NCBI RefSeq assembly: GCF_013122565.1
Contig: NZ_CP053258.1
Length of the DNA stretch: 64,000 nucleotides
Direction: 5' to 3' (one strand)
Source: Escherichia coli
GTDB taxonomy: Bacteria; Pseudomonadota; Gammaproteobacteria; Enterobacterales; Enterobacteriaceae
How positions within the stretch are numbered: the stretch's first letter is position 1; each line of letters opens with the position of its first letter. The translations under genes and the position numbers were made by a program. Positions 13,456 to 61,356 of this stretch are shown piece by piece. The notes below the pieces were generated by a model. The model had not been told where the DNA came from, searched no databases, and saw nothing but the letters and a program-made list of their open reading frames with translations.

Positions 13456-14385
13456 TTAATCCAGCGTTGGATTCATGTGCCGTAGATCGTATGGCGTGAT
13501 CTGGTAGACGTAATAGTTGAGCCAGTTGGTAAACAGCAAATTACCGTGACTACGCCAGCTCGCTCGCGGTTTGTTTTGCGGATCATTGTGCGGGAAATAG
13601 TTATACGGTACTTCCGGGTCTAGTCCGGCTTCCACATCGCGGAAATATTCTTGCGCCAGCGTTTGCGCATCATATTCGGGATGGCCCGTCACAAAGGCAA
13701 TGCGCTTATCTTTGCTGGCAAACAGATATGCATCCCCTCCTTCCGTCTCTGCCAGAATTTCCAGATCGGTGTAATCACGAATCAACGCTGCCGGAAAGTC
13801 AGCATAGCGCGAATGCGGTGCCAGGAATGAATCATCAAAGCCACGCGTCAGAAGCGCATGAGGATGGAGAATATGATGCTCGTAAACGCCAGAGAGTTTG
13901 TCGGTGCGAGTTTGCTTAGGAATGCCGTAGAGGATATTGAGCGCGGCCTGTACCGCCCAGCAGACAAACAGCGTCGAGGTGACGTGATCTTTCGACCACT
14001 CCAGCACCTGTTTGATCTGCGGCCAGTAAGCGACATCATTAAACTCTACCAGGCCCAGCGGCGCACCAGTTACAATCAAACCGTCAAAGTTCTGATCCTG
14101 AATATCTTCAAAGTTACAGTAGAAGTTATTCAGATGCTCTGCGGGCGTGTTGCGCGACTCGCGGGAATCGATGCGCAACAGCTGAATATCGACCTGCAAA
14201 GGCGAGTTTGAAAGCAGGCGCAGAAATTGATTTTCAGTTTCAATCTTCTTCGGCATCAGGTTAAGGATAAGCACCTTTAGCGGACGAATTTCCTGACCAG
14301 ACGCACGAGAAGTTGTCATCACAAAGACGTTTTCTTCACGCAAGAAATTGACGGCGGGTAGCTCGTCCGGCACACGAATCGGCAT
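13456..14385 (-). CDS. metA: Homoserine O-succinyltransferase
   Basis: 309-aa [31 protein letters not shown]... Confidence 0.95.
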
Positions 14386-14415
14386 AACCTGATTACCTCA
14401 CTACATACGCTTATA

Positions 14416-14436
14416 CGTTTAGACATCCAGATAGCT
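14416..14436 (-). promoter_or_regulatory. Candidate MetJ boxes upstream of metA
   Basis: agacatcc/agatagct are tandem 8-mers loosely resembling the AGACGTCT met-box; metA is a known MetJ target. Confidence 0.3.
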
Positions 14437-14541
14437 GAAGATAACCAGAAAATTTGCCAATGTCGAGCCTGCATGTTGAAGGTGAGAAAGTTTCAAGGAA
14501 AAGACTACGTTAGAATATAAGAATGACTAAAAGGAGTGAAA

Positions 14542-14985
14542 ATGGTTATTAGTATTCGCCGCTCACGGTATGAGGAAGGGGAGGAACTCGTTGCGATTTG
14601 GTGTCGATCTGTCGATGCCACCCACGATTTTTTATCAGCAGAGTATCGGGCCGAGCTGGAAGAGCTGGTTCGTTCCTTTCTGCCGGAAGCACCGTTGTGG
14701 GTCGCGGTTAATGAACGGGATCAGCTGGTTGGGTTTATGTTGTTAAGTGGGCAGCATATGGATGCGCTGTTTATCGATCCTGATGTGCGCGGCTGCGGCG
14801 TGGGTCGGATGCTGGTGGAGCATGCGCTCTCGATGGCACCGGAACTGACAACCAACGTTAATGAGCAAAATGAGCAGGCGGTTGGGTTCTATAAGAAGGT
14901 GGGTTTTAAGGTTACTGGACGCTCTGAGGTGGACGATTTGGGGAAACCGTATCCGTTGCTGAATCTGGCGTATGTGGGGGAATAA
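14542..14985 (+). CDS. yjaB: GNAT-family N-acetyltransferase YjaB
   Basis: ORF 14536-14985; internal start MVISIRRSRYEEGEELVAIW gives 147 aa; acetyltransferase-like motif region (..LFIDPDVRGCGVGRMLVEHAL..) present. Confidence 0.85.
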   Translation: MVISIRRSRYEEGEELVAIWCRSVDATHDFLSAEYRAELEELVRSFLPEAPLWVAVNERDQLVGFMLLSGQHMDALFIDPDVRGCGVGRMLVEHALSMAPELTTNVNEQNEQAVGFYKKVGFKVTGRSEVDDLGKPYPLLNLAYVGE

Positions 14986-15012
14986 GCTGCCCCCTATCGT
15001 GCTATCGTGCCT

Positions 15013-15051
15013 GCGTAAGCTGGATAAGACGCGCCAGCGTCGCATCCGGCA
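15013..15051 (-). repeat. REP-like element between yjaB and the rrnE terminator
   Basis: Minus-strand tgccggatgcgacgctggcgcgtcttatccagcttacgc fits the REP pattern. Confidence 0.5.
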
Positions 15052-15065
15052 TTTTTTTCTGCGCC

Positions 15066-15098
15066 AATGCAAAAAGGCCATCCGTCAGGATGGCCTTT
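15066..15098 (-). terminator. rrnE operon intrinsic terminator
   Basis: aggccatcc-gtca-ggatggcct hairpin with a T-run on the minus strand, immediately after the 5S gene. Confidence 0.7.
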
Positions 15099-15109
15099 CG
15101 CTTAATTTG

Positions 15110-15229
15110 ATGCCTGGCAGTTCCCTACTCTCGCATGGGGAGACCCCACACTACCATCGGCGCTACGGCGTTTCACTTCTGAGTTCGGCATGGGGTCAGG
15201 TGGGACCACCGCGCTACGGCCGCCAGGCA
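15110..15229 (-). rRNA. rrfE: 5S ribosomal RNA (rrnE operon)
   Basis: 120-nt match to the remembered E. coli 5S sequence (TGCCTGGCGGC...GGAACTGCCAGGCAT) in reverse complement. Confidence 0.95.
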
Positions 15230-15323
15230 AATTCTGTTTTATTAACCCGCTTATCGCCGGTTAATGTAATCTGTATCAGGCTGAAAATCTTCTCTCAATC
15301 CGCCAAAACATCTTCGGCGTTGT

Positions 15324-18227
<2,904 letters not shown>

Positions 18228-18411
18228 TCACAACCCGAAGATGTTTCACTTCAGAGTTGCGAAAATTTGAGAGACTCACGAACAACATTCGTTGTTCAGT
18301 GTTTCAATTTTCAGCTTGATCCAGATTTTTAAAGAGCAAATATCTCAAACATCACCCGAAGATGAGTTTTGAGATATTGAGGTCGGCGACTTTCACTCAC
18401 AAACCAGCAAG

Positions 18412-18487
18412 TGGCGTCCCCTAGGGGATTCGAACCCCTGTTACCGCCGTGAAAGGGCGGTGTCCTGGGCCTCTAGACGAAGGGGAC
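18412..18487 (-). tRNA. gltV: tRNA-Glu (anticodon UUC) in the 16S-23S spacer
   Basis: Reverse complement equals GTCCCCTTCGTCTAGAGGCCCAGGACACCGCCCTTTCACGGCGGTAACAGGGGTTCGAATCCCCTAGGGGACGCCA. Confidence 0.95.
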
Positions 18488-18572
18488 GTATCAGTCTGCT
18501 TCGCAAGACGCCTTGCTTTTCACTTTCTATCAGACAATCTGTGTGAGCACTGCAAAGTACAGTTCTTTAAGG

Positions 18573-20114
<1,542 letters not shown>

Positions 20115-23620: not shown

Positions 23621-24942
23621 CGCGACAGTTTTGCCAATAGCGTTTTGCGAGTGATCCCTAACTGACGGGCGGCTTCGGTTTTGTTGCCGCCCGTTTTCTC
23701 CAGCGCCGCCAGAATCACCTCTTTTTCCACTTCCACCAACGGCTGAATATCCTGACTTTGCCCCAGCGGGATCGGCGTACTGGCAATCGCCAGCGGCAGC
23801 TCGCGTTCGGAAATATATTCCCCAGTCAGCAGCACCACCGCCCGTTCCACCGCATTTTCCAGTTCACGAATATTTCCCGGCCAGTCGTAATGAATCAACA
23901 GATCCATCGCCTGGGGCGTAAAGCCTTTTACCGCCTTGCGATTACGTTCAGCAAAGCGCTGAAGAAAATGGCCAGCCAGCAGAGGAATATCTTCCCGCCG
24001 TTGCCGCAGCGACGGTACTTCAATCGCCACCACGTTCAGGCGATAGTAGAGATCCTGGCGAAAACGCCCGGCCTTTACCTCTGCGGCAAGATCGCGATGG
24101 GTCGCCGCAATCAGCCGGACATCAACCGAAATAGTCTGGTTGCTACCGACACGCTGAACTTCGCGTTCCTGAATCGCACGTAGCAGACGCACCTGCATCA
24201 TCGGCGAGATATCGCCAATTTCATCGAGAAACAGCGTGCCGCCGTCCGCCTCAACAAAGCGCCCTTCCCGGCGTTTATCGGCTCCAGTAAACGCCCCTTT
24301 TTCGTGACCGAACAATTCAGATTCCAGCAAGGATTCGTTGAGTGCCGCACAGTTGAGCGTTACCAGCGGTTTTTCGCTACGTGCGCTACTGGCGTGAATC
24401 GCCCTGGCGACCAGCTCTTTACCGGTGCCGGAATCGCCGTGGATCAGCACCGTGGCTTCCGATGGCGCGACGAGGGCGATTTCACTGAGCAGGTGTTGCA
24501 TCGCCGGGCTTTTACCGACCATACCGAACTGGCTGGCAGTCACCGCAGGTGTTTCAGCATCAATACTGTGCGTATGCGCGAGCGCCTTTTCCAGCGTCGC
24601 CTGTAGGTTATCGAAATCCAGCGGCTTGATGAGATAATCCAGCGCCCCAGTTTTCAGTGCCTCTACCGCCGTCTCGACGCTGGAGTACGCAGTCATAATC
24701 AGCACCGGAATTGCCGGGTTTAACGCTTTGATCTCTTTCAGCGTGGCGATGCCGTCCATCTCCGCCATTCGCACATCGCAAAGCACAAGATCAAAAACCT
24801 GTTCCCGCACCTGCTCCAGCGCCTGTCGCCCGCTGTTCGCCAGCGCGACGTTATAGCCCCAGCCGCGCAGTAAAGCCTGCAAAATAGTGCAGTGGCTAAT
24901 GTCATCATCCACCACCAGAATATCGATATTATCGTGCGTCAT
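23617..24942 (-). CDS. zraR: Sigma-54-dependent response regulator ZraR (HydG)
   Basis: 441-aa ORF with receiver domain, AAA+ sigma-54 activator motifs (GESGTGKE, GAFTGA) and C-terminal HTH. Confidence 0.9.
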
Positions 24943-26315
24943 CCTTGTGGGTCCTTACGCGTAATATTGACCGGAAGCCAGAGGGTGAACGTTGCGCCTT
25001 TTCCCTCCTGGCTTGCGACCTGAATTGTACCACCGTGTTGTTCAACAATATTATGCACGACCGCCAGCCCCAATCCGGTGCCTTCGGCTTTGGTGGTGAA
25101 GTACGGAGTGAAGATGGCTTCAAGCTGATCTGCCGCAATTCCCTTACCGCTGTCGGTAACGCTGATTTTCACGCCCGCGCCGCTTTCGCTGGCCGTCACG
25201 CTAATCACGCCATGCTGACCAATCGCCTGAATAGCATTGAGATAGAGATTCAACAGGACCTGAGTCAGCCTGTCCGGATCGGCCTGAATTTCCGGTAATG
25301 TGTCGTTGTCGGTAAAGCGTAACTGGATCTCCCGGCTGTTTGCATCCTGGCTTACCAGCTGTAATGAGTGGTTAATCAGCGTGTTGAGATCCACCGCCTG
25401 CAAAGCCAGATGCGTTGGCTTAACCAGTTCCAGCAACTCGCTTACCACGCGGTTTAAACGGTCGGCCTCTTTCGCCATCACCTGCGCCAGTTGATGCGCT
25501 TCTCCCCCTGCAGGCGCGCGCTCGGCAAAGTATTTCGCCAGTCCTTTAATCGAGGAAAGTGGGTTACGGATTTCGTGGGCAACGCCTGCCGCAAGATGCC
25601 CCAGCGCCACCAGCTTCTCTTTGCGCTTCATTTCATCTTGTAGAAGCTGGCGCGAGCGCAGATAGCGGCGATACCAGAAGAATGACAATACGCTTGCCAG
25701 CAAGACCGTCGCCAGGGCGAAGAGGATAATCAGGGTGTTTCTCTGCTCACGATCTTCGGCACTCACAATATTACTGGCGTCGAAAGCGATGAAAATTGCT
25801 TGTGGTGTCGCGGCATACTGCTGCATATGGCGCATCCGGTGCATTCCAGCAGCAAACATCGGTTGAAACTGGCGATAAATTTCCAGAACAGGCTCGCCGT
25901 CTGCGCTATCGATCCGCCGCCATGCTTCTTCATCTCCCGGATGTAACTGCTGCATTTCCTGCGGGGAATAAAGCTGTTTTCCCACCATGCCGGAGTTGCT
26001 ATGCATCACGATTGTTCCTTGTTCATCCGTGACCGCAAACCAACGTACTCCAGGCTGCCCGGCCATTTCTTCCAGTAAGGCCTGCTGCTGCGCATGATGC
26101 ATGCGCATCCCCATGCCGACGCGCGAGCCGGATTCAAGAGCGCGAATAAGTACACTGCCTTTTTCCAGCAGCGTTTGTCTGGCGGCGGCAGTCTCGCGCC
26201 CATAATCGCGAATCACCGTCACCGCAAACAACCCCACCAGCCCAACAATGACCACGGGGAGGATCGCGCTTAACCATTTAGCTAAGGAGTCTTTAGAACG
26301 TTGCATAAAACGCAT
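24939..26315 (-). CDS. zraS: Sensor histidine kinase ZraS (HydH)
   Basis: 458-aa ORF with two hydrophobic segments and a histidine-kinase core (HEIRNPL H-box); overlaps zraR by 4 nt. Confidence 0.9.
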   Translation of the reverse strand: MRFMQRSKDSLAKWLSAILPVVIVGLVGLFAVTVIRDYGRETAAARQTLLEKGSVLIRALESGSRVGMGMRMHHAQQQALLEEMAGQPGVRWFAVTDEQGTIVMHSNSGMVGKQLYSPQEMQQLHPGDEEAWRRIDSADGEPVLEIYRQFQPMFAAGMHRMRHMQQYAATPQAIFIAFDASNIVSAEDREQRNTLIILFALATVLLASVLSFFWYRRYLRSRQLLQDEMKRKEKLVALGHLAAGVAHEIRNPLSSIKGLAKYFAERAPAGGEAHQLAQVMAKEADRLNRVVSELLELVKPTHLALQAVDLNTLINHSLQLVSQDANSREIQLRFTDNDTLPEIQADPDRLTQVLLNLYLNAIQAIGQHGVISVTASESGAGVKISVTDSGKGIAADQLEAIFTPYFTTKAEGTGLGLAVVHNIVEQHGGTIQVASQEGKGATFTLWLPVNITRKDPQG

Positions 26316-26346
26316 CTTCTTCTTTGCCTGCTCATCCCTTTCTGAC

Positions 26347-26362
26347 AGCAGAAATCATGCCA
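26347..26362 (-). promoter_or_regulatory. Candidate sigma-54 promoter for zraSR
   Basis: Minus strand tggcat-gattt-ctgct resembles the -24/-12 consensus TGGCAC-N5-TTGCA. Confidence 0.5.
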
Positions 26363-26413
26363 TCTTTTATCAGCGCTTACCCTGCGCTGTAACACAAAGG
26401 CTTAAGTTTCAAT

Positions 26414-26459
26414 GAGTAAAAATGACTCGCTACCCGCAGCAGGCGAGTCATTTTTACTC
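26414..26459. promoter_or_regulatory. ZraR enhancer-binding inverted repeat in the zraP/zraS divergent region
   Basis: gagtaaaaatgactcgc and gcgagtcatttttactc are perfect 17-bp inverted repeats separated by 12 bp. Confidence 0.7.
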
Positions 26460-26501
26460 GCCTATCACGCCAGATTGCCCGTCATATCAGCGTTTCATCG
26501 T

Positions 26502-26517
26502 TGGCACGGAAGATGCA
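26502..26517 (+). promoter_or_regulatory. Sigma-54 promoter for zraP
   Basis: tggcacggaagatgca: -24 GG and -12 GC with correct spacing. Confidence 0.7.
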
Positions 26518-26552
26518 ATACCCGAAGTAAGACAACCACTGGAGGATTAACC

Positions 26553-26978
26553 ATGAAACGGAACACGAAAATTGCCCTGGTAATGATGGCGCTTTCAGCA
26601 ATGGCGATGGGATCGACATCTGCATTTGCTCACGGCGGACACGGTATGTGGCAGCAAAATGCCGCGCCTTTGACCAGCGAACAACAGACAGCGTGGCAGA
26701 AAATCCATAATGACTTTTACGCTCAAAGCAGCGCACTGCAACAGCAACTGGTGACGAAGCGTTATGAATACAATGCCCTGTTAGCCGCGAACCCACCGGA
26801 TAGCAGCAAAATTAACGCGGTCGCCAAAGAGATGGAGAATTTGCGTCAGTCGTTAGATGAGTTACGGGTGAAACGGGATATTGCGATGGCTGAAGCGGGT
26901 ATTCCGCGCGGAGCCGGAATGGGCATGGGCTACGGCGGCTGCGGTGGTGGCGGTCATATGGGTATGGGCCACTGGTAA
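26553..26978 (+). CDS. zraP: Zinc-resistance-associated periplasmic protein ZraP
   Basis: ORF 26412-26978; internal start MKRNTKIALVMMALSAMAMGSTSAFAHGGHG (signal peptide) gives 141 aa; Gly/His/Met-rich C-terminus. Confidence 0.9.
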   Translation: MKRNTKIALVMMALSAMAMGSTSAFAHGGHGMWQQNAAPLTSEQQTAWQKIHNDFYAQSSALQQQLVTKRYEYNALLAANPPDSSKINAVAKEMENLRQSLDELRVKRDIAMAEAGIPRGAGMGMGYGGCGGGGHMGMGHW

Positions 26979-26979
26979 A

Positions 26980-27681
26980 TCAGAACGTTTTCTCGTTGGG
27001 TTGCCAGCGACAGAAATCAGAGTTTGCCACCAACAGTAATTGCGAACCTTCGGGCGCTTCCAGCCATGCCACGCTGACATCAACAGAAGAGCGGCTCTGG
27101 CGGCGCTCGATATGCGCTATCGCCTGCGAATCTAAATCAGGTTTAATGGTTTGCCCTTCGCAGGTGGTCACGGTCTGTTCCATCGCATGCCAGCGCCCCT
27201 GGCGCAGCACGACTCTCCCCTGACGTAAGGCATCGCTAATCTGGCGGATCTGATCAGCACGATAACGGTATAAATCGATTTGGTCGTTAGAAAGCTGCTG
27301 CTTTTCCCCATCGGATTCACGTTGCATAAAGCTCAGATCGCCGCGATCGTCAAAACGCGCGCGAATGTTCACCGGCGGTTTGCTGTAAACATTGATATTG
27401 ATGAGCGTAAGGTTATCGCCCTGCCAGCGATACTCTCGCGTGGTGGTATCGCCACTGCGCCACGGGCTAAACACGGCAAGCAGATGCACATTATCGCCGC
27501 TGTCTTTTCGCCAGATACGTACCGCGCCCTGGTCTTCAGCAAATCCACTGGCGGTAAAGGGAGGAAGTGAAGAGTTGTGACTACAGGCAGTGAGAAACAG
27601 AGCGCCTGCCAGCATCAATGATCGACGCCAGAAAGACAAAAGGGGTGAAACCACCCCTTCGTTAAAACTGTTCACTGCCAC
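26980..27681 (-). CDS. yjaH: DUF1481-family putative lipoprotein YjaH
   Basis: 233-aa ORF with a lipobox-like LTAC motif near the N-terminus; position between zraP and hupA; true start may be internal. Confidence 0.7.
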   Translation of the reverse strand: MAVNSFNEGVVSPLLSFWRRSLMLAGALFLTACSHNSSLPPFTASGFAEDQGAVRIWRKDSGDNVHLLAVFSPWRSGDTTTREYRWQGDNLTLININVYSKPPVNIRARFDDRGDLSFMQRESDGEKQQLSNDQIDLYRYRADQIRQISDALRQGRVVLRQGRWHAMEQTVTTCEGQTIKPDLDSQAIAHIERRQSRSSVDVSVAWLEAPEGSQLLLVANSDFCRWQPNEKTF

Positions 27682-27687
27682 GCAATC

Positions 27688-27960
27688 TTACTTAACTGCG
27701 TCTTTCAGTGCCTTGCCAGAAACAAATGCCGGTACGTTAGCTGCGGCAATTTTGATTTCTTTACCGGTCTGCGGGTTGCGGCCAGTACGCTCAGCGCGGT
27801 GGTTCACTTTGAAGGTACCGAAACCAACCAGTTGTACAGCATCGCCTTCTTTCAGAGACTCAGTAATTGCAGCCAGAGTGGACTCCAGAGCAGCTTTAGC
27901 CTGGGTTTTGGACAGTTCTGCTTTCTCTGCAATTACATCAATCAGTTGAGTCTTGTTCAT
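27688..27960 (-). CDS. hupA: DNA-binding protein HU-alpha
   Basis: 90-aa [93 protein letters not shown]. Confidence 0.97.
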
Positions 27961-28146
27961 AAGTTATCCTTACAATGTGTTTATCGCTTGCTAAGCATCG
28001 AGTGCGACGGAAATGCCAGAATAGCACTCTCCTGCATACACGCACCGATAGCCACTTTTTTTCGCCCCCCAAATGTAGACCAGACGGGGGGCGAAAGGGA
28101 AGACTCCAGGTACGACAAATCAGGCGTTAAATCACGTTTTCTGGTC

Positions 28147-32056: not shown

Positions 32057-32109
32057 GTTCTGCGCTGTTAACGCGTAATTTACATTCAACGCCCCGTTTG
32101 TGGGGGCTA

Positions 32110-32205
32110 ATTTCTTGTCGGAGTGCCTTAACTGGCTGAGACCGTTTATTCGGGATCCGCGGAACCTGATCAGGCTAATACCTGCGAAGGGAACAAGAGT
32201 TAATC
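32110..32205 (+). promoter_or_regulatory. TPP (thi-box) riboswitch in the thiC leader
   Basis: ctgagaccgtttattcgggatccgcggaacctgatcaggctaatacctgcgaagggaa contains the conserved thi-box core (CTGAGA...ACCTGATC.GG.TAATGCC.GCG.AGGGAA); boundaries approximate. Confidence 0.85.
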
Positions 32206-32286
32206 TGCTATCGCATCGCCTTTGCGGCGATCGTCTCTTGCTTCATCCGTCGTCTGACAAGCCACGTCCTTAACTTTTTGGAATGA

Positions 32287-37879: not shown

Positions 37880-38070
37880 AATACTCAACTATGATAGAGA
37901 CGAAAATAAGAACACATGTTCTCATCTTCCAGGATGCAGCAGACTGAAGAAATTCAGACATCCCGCAACCTGCGATTATCGCAAGGTCAAGGCAAAGTCC
38001 GGTAATGGCGTTCTGAATACCAGAGATAATTCTCTGGCGAAACCCACCTTAAGGTGGGTTTTGTTATTTT
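37880..38070 (+). ncRNA. Candidate small transcript (about 190 nt) between thiH and htrC, bounded by a sigma-70-like promoter and a canonical intrinsic terminator
   Basis: Promoter-like TTGAGC-17 bp-TGTAAT at 37845-37873; terminator hairpin aacccacc-ttaa-ggtgggtt at 38041-38060 followed by ttgttatttt. Transcript ends are predicted, not observed. Confidence 0.35.
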
Positions 38071-52923: not shown

Positions 52924-53240
52924 CTAAAAAATTGCATAATTTGTTTTGTTGGTCACATTTTATGCGACACGATGAAGAAACAGCCGAATGGAGGGCAGAT
53001 TAGCACACTTTTTCAACATGATGTGCTCAACAATGCGCTCCTGCTAAACCATAATTCTTTTTATCAGATGGAATATCTGTCACATTGCTTTTCAACGATA
53101 GCTTCCTGGGAGAGATTTTTTCTTATTATTCCTCCCCATCTGGTGTTACCCTCCTGCCCATTAACCCATTCAACAGAACTGTGACGCGCCATGGCAAATA
53201 TCGCTTTGCCGATAGAGCTATGACCGCCAGAAACATGCTT

Positions 53241-54191
53241 ATGAGTATAAAAGAGCAAACGTTAATGACGCCTTACCTACAGTTTGACCGCAACCAGTGG
53301 GCAGCTCTGCGTGATTCCGTACCTATGACGTTATCGGAAGATGAGATCGCCCGTCTCAAAGGTATTAATGAAGATCTCTCGTTAGAAGAAGTTGCCGAGA
53401 TCTATTTACCTTTGTCACGTTTGCTGAACTTCTATATAAGCTCAAATCTGCGCCGTCAGGCAGTTCTGGAGCAGTTTCTTGGTACCAATGGGCAACGCAT
53501 TCCTTACATTATCAGTATTGCTGGTAGTGTCGCGGTGGGGAAAAGTACAACCGCCCGTGTATTGCAGGCGCTATTAAGCCGTTGGCCGGAACATCGTCGT
53601 GTTGAACTGATCACTACAGATGGCTTCCTTCACCCTAATCAGGTTCTGAAAGAACGAGGTCTGATGAAGAAGAAAGGCTTCCCGGAATCGTATGATATGC
53701 ATCGCCTGGTCAAGTTTGTTTCCGATCTCAAGTCCGGCGTGCCAAACGTTACAGCCCCTGTTTACTCGCATCTTATTTATGATGTGATCCCGGATGGAGA
53801 TAAAACTGTTGTTCAGCCTGATATTTTAATTCTTGAAGGATTAAATGTCTTACAGAGCGGGATGGATTATCCACACGATCCACATCATGTATTTGTTTCT
53901 GATTTTGTCGATTTTTCGATATATGTTGATGCACCGGAAGACTTACTTCAGACGTGGTATATCAACCGTTTTCTGAAATTCCGCGAAGGGGCTTTTACAG
54001 ACCCGGATTCCTATTTTCATAACTACGCGAAATTAACTAAAGAAGAAGCTATTAAGACTGCCATGACATTGTGGAAAGAGATCAACTGGCTGAACTTAAA
54101 GCAAAATATTCTACCTACTCGCGAGCGCGCCAGTTTAATCCTGACGAAAAGTGCTAATCATGCGGTAGAAGAGGTCAGACTACGCAAATAA
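53241..54191 (+). CDS. coaA: Pantothenate kinase (type I)
   Basis: ORF 53085-54191; internal start [27 protein letters not shown] gives 316 aa; P-loop GSVAVGKST present. Confidence 0.95.
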
Positions 54192-54194
54192 TTT

Positions 54195-54225
54195 TCAGGG
54201 GAGCTAATGCTCCCCTTTCTTATTT
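54195..54225. terminator. Hairpin terminator between convergent coaA and birA
   Basis: aggggagc-taat-gctcccct followed by ttcttatttt. Confidence 0.6.
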
Positions 54226-55185
54226 TTATGCACTACGCAGGGATATTTCACCGCCCATCCAGGGTTTTATTATTCCATCCTGCTCAAGCAATAAAGCGCC
54301 CTGTTTGTCTATTCCGCGTGAAATGCCAAATATTTCTTTATCACCAATGATAAGTTTCACTGGGCGATTAATAAAATTATCCAGCTTTTCCCAGCGCGAA
54401 AGATAAGGTGCCAATCCTTCTTGTTCGAAGAGTTCCAGCGCCGCGCGTAATTCACGTATTAGCATGGCCGCCAACGTATTACGATCGAGATTGATCCCCG
54501 CTTCCTGCAGCGTGATCCACCCCTGATTAACGACACTCTCTTCAACACGACGCATTGCCATGTTGATACCGGCTCCAATGACTATTTGCGCCGCATCGCC
54601 GGTTTTACCAGTCAGCTCCACAAGAATGCCTGCCAGCTTGCGATCCTGCAGATAGAGGTCATTAGGCCATTTAACACGAACTTTATCTGCACCCAGCTTG
54701 CGTAATACTTCCGCCATCACGATACCGATAACCAGACTTAAACCAATCGCCGCCGCCGGGCCTTGTTCCAGACGCCAGAACATCGACAAATATAAGTTTG
54801 CGCCAAAAGGCGAAAACCATTTCCGACCCCGGCGACCACGGCCAGCCTGCTGGTATTCTGCAACGCAGGCATCGCCCGATTTAAGCTCTCCGATACGATC
54901 AAGAAAGTACTGATTCGTGGAGTCAATCACTGGCAGCACGGCTACACTACCGCCATCCAGCTGACCCAATATCTGTTTAGCATTAAGTAACTGGATAGGC
55001 TCAGGCAGGCTGTATCCTTTACCCGGAACGGTAAAGACATCAACGCCCCAGTCACGCAGTGTCTGAATGTGTTTATTAATAGCCGCCCGACTCATTCCTA
55101 ACGTTTCACCCAACTGCTCACCTGAGTGAAATTCGCCATTCGCTAACAGCGCGATTAATTTCAGCGGAACGGTATTATCCTTCAT
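54226..55185 (-). CDS. birA: Biotin-protein ligase / bio operon repressor BirA
   Basis: 319-aa [54 protein letters not shown]...; ends ..SLRSA at a TAA, two residues short of the K-12 ending I recall (..SLRSAEK). Confidence 0.93.
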
Positions 55186-56210
55186 GAAATCGTCTCCACT
55201 GCGCTAACTTCACCTGATGCACCAATAAAGCGAACTTCAGGCTCAAGCCAGACATTAAATTTTTCACCCACTTTTTGTCTTACATGGTGCGCCAGTTGCA
55301 CCACATCTTCGCTTTTTGCATTGTCTTCATTAATGAGAACTAACGCCTGTTGACGGTGCACCGCTGCACCACCCATTTGCATCCCTTTTAGCTGGCACTG
55401 ATCGATAAGCCAACCTGCTGCCAGTTTTACTGAACCATCCACCTGGGGGTAATTTGGTGCTGTTGGAAATTGTGCCAGTAATGCTTTAGCCGTTTCGGCA
55501 GACACAACAGGGTTTTTGAAGAAACTACCGGCATTGCCATTCACTTTTGGGTCAGGAAGTTTGGTGGTGCGCATATGACACACCGCATCAAATACTTGCT
55601 GTGGCGTTATTGTTGCAGGATCCAGACGAGTTAAGTCACCATACGTTAGTACAGGTTGCCACTCTTTTGGCAGACGCAGACCTACGGCTACAATGGCGAA
55701 GCGATCCTGGTATTCATGTTTAAAAATACTGTCGCGATAGCCAAAACGGCACTCTTTGGCAGTTAAGCGCACTTGCTTGCCTGTCACCAGTTCAACACAA
55801 TCAACATAAGCGCAAACTCGCTGTAATTCTACGCCATAAGCACCAATATTCTGGATAGGTGATGAGCCGACACAACCAGGAATTAATGCCAGATTTTCCA
55901 GACCTGGCATACCTTCCTGCAAAGTGTATTTTACCAGGCGATGCCAGTTTTCCCCTGCCCCCACATGTAAATACCACGCATCAGGTTCATCATGAATTTC
56001 GATACCTTTGATCCGGTTGATGATCACCGTGCCGCGATAGTCTTCCAGAAAAAGTACATTACTTCCTTCACCCAGAATAAGAGCGGGTTGTCCTTTTGCG
56101 GTTGCATGCTGCCAGGCATTGAGTAGTTGTTGTTCGTCTTCGGCACATACAATGTGCTGAGCATTATGATCAATGCCAAATGTGTTCCAGGGTTTTAAGG
56201 AGTGGTTCAT
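55182..56210 (-). CDS. murB: UDP-N-acetylenolpyruvoylglucosamine reductase
   Basis: 342-aa [57 protein letters not shown]...; overlaps the birA start. Confidence 0.95.
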
Positions 56211-56299
56211 AGCTGCTTTCCTGATGCAAAAACGAGGCTAGTTTACCGTATCTGCGGGGGGATGGCTTGTAGATATGATGACAGGAAAAGTTTGTAGAA

Positions 56300-56332
56300 A
56301 CGCAAAAAGGCCCAGTCTTCCGACTGAGCCTT
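56300..56332 (-). terminator. rrnB operon intrinsic terminator (single T1/T2-like hairpin)
   Basis: Minus strand ggctcagtcggaagactgggcc hairpin followed by a T-run, immediately after the 5S gene. Confidence 0.7.
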
Positions 56333-56344
56333 CTGCTTAATTTG

Positions 56345-56464
56345 ATGCCTGGCAGTTCCCTACTCTCGCATGGGGAGACCCCACACTACCATCGGCGCTA
56401 CGGCGTTTCACTTCTGAGTTCGGCATGGGGTCAGGTGGGACCACCGCGCTACGGCCGCCAGGCA
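56345..56464 (-). rRNA. rrfB: 5S ribosomal RNA (rrnB operon)
   Basis: 120-nt reverse-complement match to E. coli 5S rRNA. Confidence 0.95.
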
Positions 56465-56556
56465 AATTCTGTTTTATCAGACCGCTTCTGCGTTCTGATT
56501 TAATCTGTATCAGGCTGAAAATCTTCTCTCATCCGCCAAAACACCTTCGGCGTTGT

Positions 56557-59460
<2,904 letters not shown>

Positions 59461-59653
59461 TCACAACCCGAAGATGTTTCTTACGATTCATCATCGTGTC
59501 GCGAAAATTTGAGAGACTCACGAACAACTTTCGTTGTTCAGTGTTTCAATTTTCAGCTTGATCCAGATTTTTAAAGAGCAAATATCTCAAACATCACCCG
59601 AAGATGAGTTTTGAGATATTAAGGCAGGTGACTTTCACTCACAAACCAGCAAG

Positions 59654-59729
59654 TGGCGTCCCCTAGGGGATTCGAACCCCTGTTACCGCCGTGAAAGGGC
59701 GGTGTCCTGGGCCTCTAGACGAAGGGGAC
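59654..59729 (-). tRNA. gltT: tRNA-Glu (anticodon UUC) in the 16S-23S spacer
   Basis: Identical 76-nt tRNA-Glu sequence in reverse complement. Confidence 0.95.

Positions 59730-59814: not shown

Positions 59815-61356
<1,542 letters not shown>

Follow-up and report, generated by a model that had tools for sequence, protein, structure and literature searches.

The closest described system is the 3' end of the rrnB operon of Escherichia coli K-12, T1-rrB-T2, which occupies the same chromosomal locus (from rrfB to murB) and is familiar as the 'rrnB T1T2' cloning cassette; it goes back to Brosius 1981 and Orosz 1991, both as cited in PMC8144298. The rrnA, rrnB and rrnD operons of K-12 have a common end, which consists of the terminator T1, a spacer of ~110 nt, a copy of the 18-nt 3' end of the 5S gene and the terminator T2. 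The T1-T2 spacer is a tRNA-linked repeat (TLR), present as rrA, rrB and rrF at three operons (Stenum et al. 2021, PMC8144298), in a line of work that includes Egan & Landy 1978 and Rudd 1999 (as cited in PMC8144298). Single terminators were described for the other four of the seven K-12 rrn operons, and rrB is transcribed by read-through of T1 (PMC8144298), with efficiencies of 87% for T1 and 100% for T2 (Orosz 1991, as cited in PMC8144298). The TLR RNA is processed into species of 173 nt and ~115 nt that bind Hfq and CsrA; for RrB, the binding to both proteins was observed in vitro, and the deletion or overexpression of rrA, rrB and rrF yielded modest phenotypes only (PMC8144298). According to Brandis et al. 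2019 (PMC6735719), the rrnB and tufB operons were anciently neighbours, and murB-birA-coaA, the genes that now follow rrnB, were inserted between them.

Layout of the rrfB-murB interval and its terminator

The window, by which we mean the whole stretch of 64,000 nt of E. coli DNA analysed here, carries on its minus strand an rrnB operon composed of a 16S gene (59815-61356), a tRNA gene (59657-59729), a 23S gene (56557-59460) and, as the last gene, the 5S rRNA gene rrfB (56345..56464). The ends of rrfB were set by alignment to MG1655 rrfB and follow the K-12 definition of 120 nt, the match to the Rfam model RF00001 (92.8 bits) spanning 56347-56462 on the minus strand. Other Rfam matches above the gathering score in the window were sroH (37902-38062, plus strand), a TPP riboswitch (32109-32209, plus strand), P26 (47398-47459, minus strand) and StyR-44, upstream of each 23S gene (59468-59576 and 18235-18334, minus strand). 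Downstream of rrfB, and on the same strand, lie murB (55182..56210, 342 aa, with its ATG at 56210), birA (54226-55185) and then coaA. The murB coding sequence was delimited from the list of open reading frames and the RefSeq annotation of matching regions, the latter also serving for birA, and the name murB was taken from the annotation in near-identical strains.

The rrfB-murB interval is 134 nt long (56211-56344). A preliminary description of this DNA had placed 134 bp and one terminator between the 5S gene and the murB start, exactly as found here in coordinates and sequence, and the terminator string that it quoted, caaattaagcagaaggctcagtcggaagactgggcctttttgcgtttctac, is present on the minus strand. 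In MG1655, 300 nt separate rrfB (ending at 4171756) from murB (starting at 4172057), and alignments with MG1655 and MC4100 revealed that the window interval is exactly 166 nt shorter. The additional 166 nt of K-12 correspond to T1, the rrB TLR and the 18-nt repeat, and they were placed by the alignment at the window's 5S trailer. K-12 does have at this locus the tandem T1/T2 arrangement given in that description, rather than a single terminator. The T1-T2 region reported there as missing is indeed absent from the window, but it had not been recognised as the TLR and small-RNA gene rrB (PMC8144298).

On the minus strand, the interval after the 5S gene begins with CAAATTAAGCAGAAGGCTCAGTCGGAAGACTGGGCCTTTTTGCGTTTCTAC. 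From the sequence, the 5S 3' trailer CAAATTAA was assigned to 56337..56344. In K-12, the first cut of pre-5S by RNase E is located 3 nt past the mature 3' end (PMC8144298), and the enzyme would be expected to cut at the same trailer position in the window strain. The trailer is followed by an A-rich 5' flank, GCAGAA (56331..56336; minimum free energy structure and alignment), which lengthens the stem by pairing with the U-tract and is the same as the 5' flank of K-12 T2. The terminator core hairpin, GGCTCAGTC-GGAA-GACTGGGCC, was delimited by folding and by comparison with K-12 operon ends (56309..56330), and has 9 bp, one of them a U.G pair, closed by a GGAA tetraloop. Directly 3' of the hairpin, the U-tract TTTTTGCGTTT (56298..56308; sequence and alignment) corresponds in the alignment to the tract after K-12 T2. 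The murB leader (56211..56297), defined from alignments and outgroup upstream regions, is colinear with the stretch from T2 to murB in K-12.

The preliminary description had proposed a T1-like hairpin with T2-like flanks, and both the alignment and the comparison with K-12 operon ends bear this out. The K-12 T1 core, GGCTCAGTCGRAAGACTGGGCC, is found directly after the 5S gene in the window, where it is identical to the T1 cores of K-12 rrnA and rrnD and differs by one loop base from that of rrnB. However, the perfectly complementary flanks of K-12 T1, AAAACGAAAGG / CCTTTCGTTTT, which generate a stem of ~20 bp, are absent, the window flanks being TTAAGCAGAAGG / CCTTTTTGCG, and the window terminator is directly followed by the murB leader rather than by the rrB TLR. 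In the alignment, both flanks of K-12 T2, CAAATTAAGCAGAAGG / CCTTTTTGCGTTTCTACAAAC, adjoining the murB leader, are identical in the window, as are the U-tract and the whole leader of ~90 nt, whereas the T2 core, GGCCATCC-TGAC-GGATGGCC, is not found. The window rrnB therefore has one terminator, versus two in K-12, and it lacks the long paired flanks of T1, the rrB core, the second 18-nt repeat and the T2 core.

No TLR core was found in the window. The core of ~110 nt located in K-12 between two terminators after the 5S gene is absent from the window rrnB, and a blastn search of the whole 64-kb window with the K-12 core gave a best E value of 0.75. The hallmark of the TLR family is that the last 18-19 nt of the upstream gene are repeated at the 3' end of the element; in the window rrnB, AACTGCCAGGCATCAAAT is present once, as the 5S 3' end. 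We identified no Rfam family for the T1-T2 spacer, either in the window at gathering thresholds or in the K-12 rrnB and rrnD ends at E <= 1, where only weak chance hits were obtained, and Rfam 15 contains no family for the TLR element. The window rrnB represents a natural allele without the TLR module (T1 with its long paired flanks, the rrB core of ~110 nt and the 18-nt repeat), and, since the module is lacking, this operon cannot make RrB.

The hairpin has the features of a Rho-independent terminator. Its predicted fold, in a context of 58 nt, had an energy of -23.8 kcal/mol (K-12 T1: -33.9 kcal/mol), with a z-score of -6.3 and none of 200 shuffled sequences as stable; the core hairpin alone gave -15.8 kcal/mol (z = -5.8). 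This G+C-rich stem-loop is directly followed by a U-rich tract, UUUUUGCGUUU. Among nine T1-like hairpins, a small sample from which the structure itself was derived, 99.1% of cells were paired, versus 23-64% in slid-register controls, and four pairs were changed on both sides, in agreement with compensatory change in the stem. A consensus terminator scan of positions 55900-56700 detected no sites. The same scanner detects K-12 T1 but misses K-12 T2, and, as its rule runs the stem into the T-run, this negative result was given no weight. The weak points of the window hairpin are its U.G pair and a U-run broken after five U. According to the proposed mechanism, the 5S transcript would fold into a G+C-rich hairpin of 9 bp, closed by a GGAA loop and extended by pairing between the A-tract and the U-tract, and RNA polymerase would be released at the U-rich tract, ~45 nt past the 5S gene. 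The 134-nt interval very probably contains the sole Rho-independent terminator of the window rrnB, in an allele devoid of the TLR module.

Frequency of the rrnB 3' ends in E. coli

The distribution of rrnB alleles was surveyed in 5,426 complete E. coli genomes. The K-12 tandem was identified at rrnB in 2,521 of them (46%) with a locus-specific long-form query, composed of the 3' part of the TLR, T2 and the murB leader, that had to be fully covered. The compact T1-like form was detected by megablast, with at least 80% of the window terminator covered, in at least 1,535 genomes (28%), a minimum, as the query and the ST131-type variants have no 28-nt word in common. Its carriers include O157:H7, CFT073, the type strain and ST131. 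A sample of 29 informative, evenly spaced rows contained 14 long, 12 compact T1-like and 3 compact T2 alleles, corresponding to shares of ~40% for the compact T1-like form and ~10% for the compact T2-only form; the latter share is an estimate from the sampled rows (3/29) and not a direct BLAST count, since the two pieces of long alleles join as one full-coverage place. The compact T2-only allele was found in EC16 and O18ac:H14, and a minority share for it is consistent with the counts for the long form and for a T2-region query, which had a match with at least 99% identity in 3,160 genomes. Single-terminator rrnB ends are normal in E. coli, with the K-12 arrangement present in just under half of the genomes. 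The compact rrnB end is an already known kind of element, long present in reference genomes; our search of the available literature yielded no description of strain-to-strain polymorphism of the rrnB terminator.

The rrnB ends of O157:H7, CFT073, ST131 and Escherichia whittamii are built like that of the window, compact and with a T1-like core immediately before the murB leader; together with the matching terminator of Escherichia albertii, they are its true counterparts. The stems of the compact copies differ by the presence of C-G, U-A or G.U at two positions, and the CFT073 terminator has an A/C mismatch at the stem base. ST131-type copies have the sequence GGCCCAGTC-GGAA-GACTGGGCC, with only four U in the tract. 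In FDAARGOS_1266 and the O25b:H4-ST131 strain 4433, the T1-like stem is perfect, the four U precede GCGUUU and the interval is 133 nt long; the U-tract looks weaker than that of the window.

This recurrence bears on the possibility that the compact arrangement is an assembly artefact, generated by the collapse of the 18-nt 5S 3' end or of terminator modules. Repeats are common to the rrn operons here, and draft assemblies often break. However, more than 1,500 genomes that were finished independently, those of O157:H7, CFT073 and ST131 among them, show this colinear arrangement as well, and the collapse of repeats would yield a T2 core rather than a T1-like core. On these two grounds an artefact was rejected as scarcely conceivable.

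The lineage of the window has no close representation among the 5,426 complete E. coli genomes. The best identities were 98.5% for murB-birA-coaA (53000-56210) and 99.3% for zraS-zraR-hupA (24000-28000), and a value of 99.7% was obtained with strain SBF45 for the region of the rrnE operon and yjaB (14400-15120).

The TLR itself is variable in the species. With the 110-nt core as query, it was undetectable by blastn in 1,481 of the 5,426 complete genomes (27%), and its copy number in the others ranged from one to at least three per genome. O157:H7 has no rrB and retains at rrnD a full T1-TLR-T2 module with rrF, in which the T2 tract is TTTATGC. In the rrnD operons of both K-12 and O157:H7, the 18-nt repeat that closes the TLR shares the variant CCAGACAT with the adjacent rrfF 3' end; as this is the variant of its own rrfF, the 18-nt repeat tracks its upstream 5S gene. 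Given the variable presence of the TLR, the published description of the family as well conserved needs qualification; the 2021 small-RNA paper does not mention this variability.

Origin of the compact rrnB end

The minus strand of the window carries another complete rRNA operon (15069-20114), which synteny identifies as rrnE, with 16S (18573-20114), tRNA (18415-18487), 23S (15324-18227) and 5S (~15110-15229; Rfam 15112-15227) genes. A blastn search with the K-12 rrfB-murB region, together with the sequence, revealed a single terminator at its end (15069..15110, minus strand), with the flanks CAAATTAAGCGAAAGG / CCTTTTTGC, as at the window rrnB, and a T2-type core, GGCCATCCTGACGGATGGCC (15076-15095). 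K-12 rrnG, K-12 rrnE and the window rrnE all have one intrinsic terminator within ~15 nt of the 5S gene and no TLR, like the window rrnB, and the flank family CAAATTAxGCxxAAGG / CCTTTTTGC is common to single-terminator ends and the window rrnB. The cores are different: K-12 rrnG, which consists of 5S and T2 only, and the window rrnE have the T2-type core, K-12 rrnE has an unrelated hairpin and the window rrnB has a T1-like one. A REP-like palindromic sequence after the window rrnE terminator resembles that found after K-12 rrnA and rrnG. The 5S gene of the window rrnE lies directly next to yjaB (14536-14985, plus strand), followed by metA (13456-14385, minus strand); yjaA, the Clermont phylotyping gene, is absent from 14386-15110, and this yjaA-less arrangement is common to many E. 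coli genomes.

The ends of K-12 rrnA and rrnB differ at only 1 of the first 222 nt, through GGCCTTTTTGC, and are unrelated within a few bases beyond that point, which is the pattern expected from gene conversion. Enterobacterial rrn 3' ends may consist of common flanks and two swappable hairpin cores, T1-like and T2-like, and gene conversion would have redistributed these parts among operons and lineages. TLR units would be gained by conversion and lost through recombination between the 18-nt repeats, and the K-12 tandem at rrnB probably came by conversion from another operon. We infer both the conversion mechanism and this direction of evolution.

Outgroup loci were retrieved by means of a murB N-terminal pattern, which yielded only 20 loci, many of them (including that of Escherichia albertii) on contigs ending at the rRNA operon; E. 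fergusonii and Salmonella enterica subsp. enterica are absent from this sample. In E. whittamii, the 5S gene is followed directly by CAAATTAAGCAGAAGGCTCAGTCGAAAGACTGAGCCTTTTTGCG, with the same architecture as in the window, a near-identical sequence and a fully compensated stem. A T1-like core adjoining the murB leader was also found in Phytobacter massiliensis and in E. albertii, the contig of the latter starting within the terminator, such that only the core and the leader are visible. Compact T2-like ends were observed in Escherichia sp. E1V33, 'E. coli' E69, Kosakonia, Superficieibacter, Phytobacter ursingii and Kluyvera cryocrescens, and the long form is present at murB in Salmonella diarizonae, Kluyvera genomosp. 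3 and Phytobacter diazotrophicus. Two states of the window murB leader, CCCCCCGCAG and GTCATCAT, are shared with outgroup Escherichia. A 1.2-kb contig deposited as 'MAG: Flavobacterium psychrophilum' (QFQM01000754.1) carries an enterobacterial 5S-terminator-murB junction near-identical to those of Phytobacter or Kosakonia, and was probably mis-binned.

The compact T1-like allele is shared with E. whittamii, matches the terminator of E. albertii and is more diverse than the T2-type alleles; we therefore lean towards the view that it is the ancestral state at rrnB in Escherichia. The mixed outgroup states, the contigs ending at the rRNA operon and the compact T2-like ends of E1V33 and E69 nevertheless argue against a settled polarity, and an appearance of shared ancestry could also result from gene conversion or horizontal exchange.

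Alternatively, the window hairpin may be a true recombinant, in which recombination between T1 and T2 in a long-form ancestor deleted the rrB spacer and fused the T1 core to the T2 flanks. Such an event would account for the composition of the hairpin, and T1 and T2 have a common microhomology, GGCCTTT, in the 3' arm of their stems. The long form is, moreover, old and widespread, being found in Salmonella, Kluyvera and Phytobacter, and the compact T2-only alleles indicate that TLR loss does occur. However, the left flank TTAAGCAGAAGG differs from that of T1, TAAAACGAAAGG, at 4 of 11 positions, so a recombinant origin would require a second exchange, and it has to be reconciled with the same architecture in E. 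whittamii and the same terminator type in E. albertii. In addition, the compact T1-like copies differ by several substitutions, some of them compensatory, whereas the T2-region query is matched at the level of identity given above in 3,160 genomes, and this diversity of copies is more readily explained by an old compact allele than by a recent derivative. We consider a recombinant origin unlikely.

Two single events starting from the K-12 form were also examined. A deletion by crossover between the 18-nt repeats would leave a pure T2 terminator, as in EC16 and O18ac:H14 and unlike that of the window, and a single crossover between T1 and T2 at GGCCTTT would retain the T1 left flank TAAAACGAAAGG, where the window has TTAAGCAGAAGG. 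Neither product is the window sequence, which was therefore not derived from the K-12 arrangement in one step. The words 'hybrid' and 'missing' in the preliminary description had implied derivation from K-12; this implication is at odds with the presence of the same form in at least 1,535 of the 5,426 genomes, in ST131-type strains and in E. whittamii, and with the matching terminator of E. albertii.

Read-through into murB and the role of the tRNA-linked repeat

The preliminary description also raised the question of read-through into murB-birA from an operon with a single terminator. In both K-12 and the window, murB lies ~90 nt behind the last terminator. The window terminator has the same U-tract, A-rich flank and distance to the ATG as T2, which is reported to be fully efficient, and its core is slightly more stable (-15.8 versus -14.7 kcal/mol for T2). 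Unusual read-through into murB-birA would therefore not be expected and the concern appears weak, the termination efficiency anticipated for the window hairpin being based on its similarity to T2. A comparable situation is found at K-12 rrnE, where yjaA begins 74 nt after the 5S gene (rrfE), in the same orientation and behind a single terminator.

It could be argued that the loss of the first terminator and the rrB spacer is functional, through increased read-through from the rRNA promoters to murB-birA or through altered CsrA/Hfq regulation without RrB. The K-12 terminators act in series, with reported efficiencies of 87% and 100%, RrB binds CsrA and Hfq in vitro (these data as given or cited in PMC8144298), and in the window a very strongly transcribed operon is separated by only one terminator from murB, which has the same orientation. 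This one terminator has, however, the U-tract and flanks of T2, which is reported to stop transcription completely on its own, and about half of the complete E. coli genomes have a single terminator at rrnB. The position of yjaA behind K-12 rrnE, the modest phenotypes of the rrA, rrB and rrF deletion (PMC8144298) and the 27% of genomes without any TLR core point in the same direction, and we regard a functional effect of this loss as distinctly improbable.

Searches of the available literature revealed no read-through data for non-K-12 alleles and no mapping of a murB promoter, and the murB leaders of the window and of K-12 both lacked a match to the sigma-70 promoter consensus. Two blocks upstream of murB, GATACGGTAAACTA and GCATCAGGAAAGCAGCTATG, the second of which includes the Shine-Dalgarno sequence, are conserved from Escherichia to Kluyvera, Salmonella and Phytobacter, and may correspond to a putative promoter or regulatory site.

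The rrnB end of the window is nothing exotic but an ordinary single intrinsic terminator. At least three kinds of rrnB 3' end occur in nature, the K-12 T1-rrB-T2 cassette being one, and this corrects the expectation derived from K-12. It is an evenly balanced question whether RrA, RrB and RrF, which the 2021 paper put forward as conserved regulators linked to growth rate, are accessory in E. coli; if so, strains like that of the window would be natural knock-outs, the dual terminator would serve to express a dispensable repeat and not to secure termination, and a single T2-flanked hairpin would be enough to insulate murB-birA. The variability of rrB and the TLR, from 0 to at least 3 copies per genome, bears on claims about the function of this element, and natural strains are available for testing the role of the dual terminators or of RrA, RrB and RrF.
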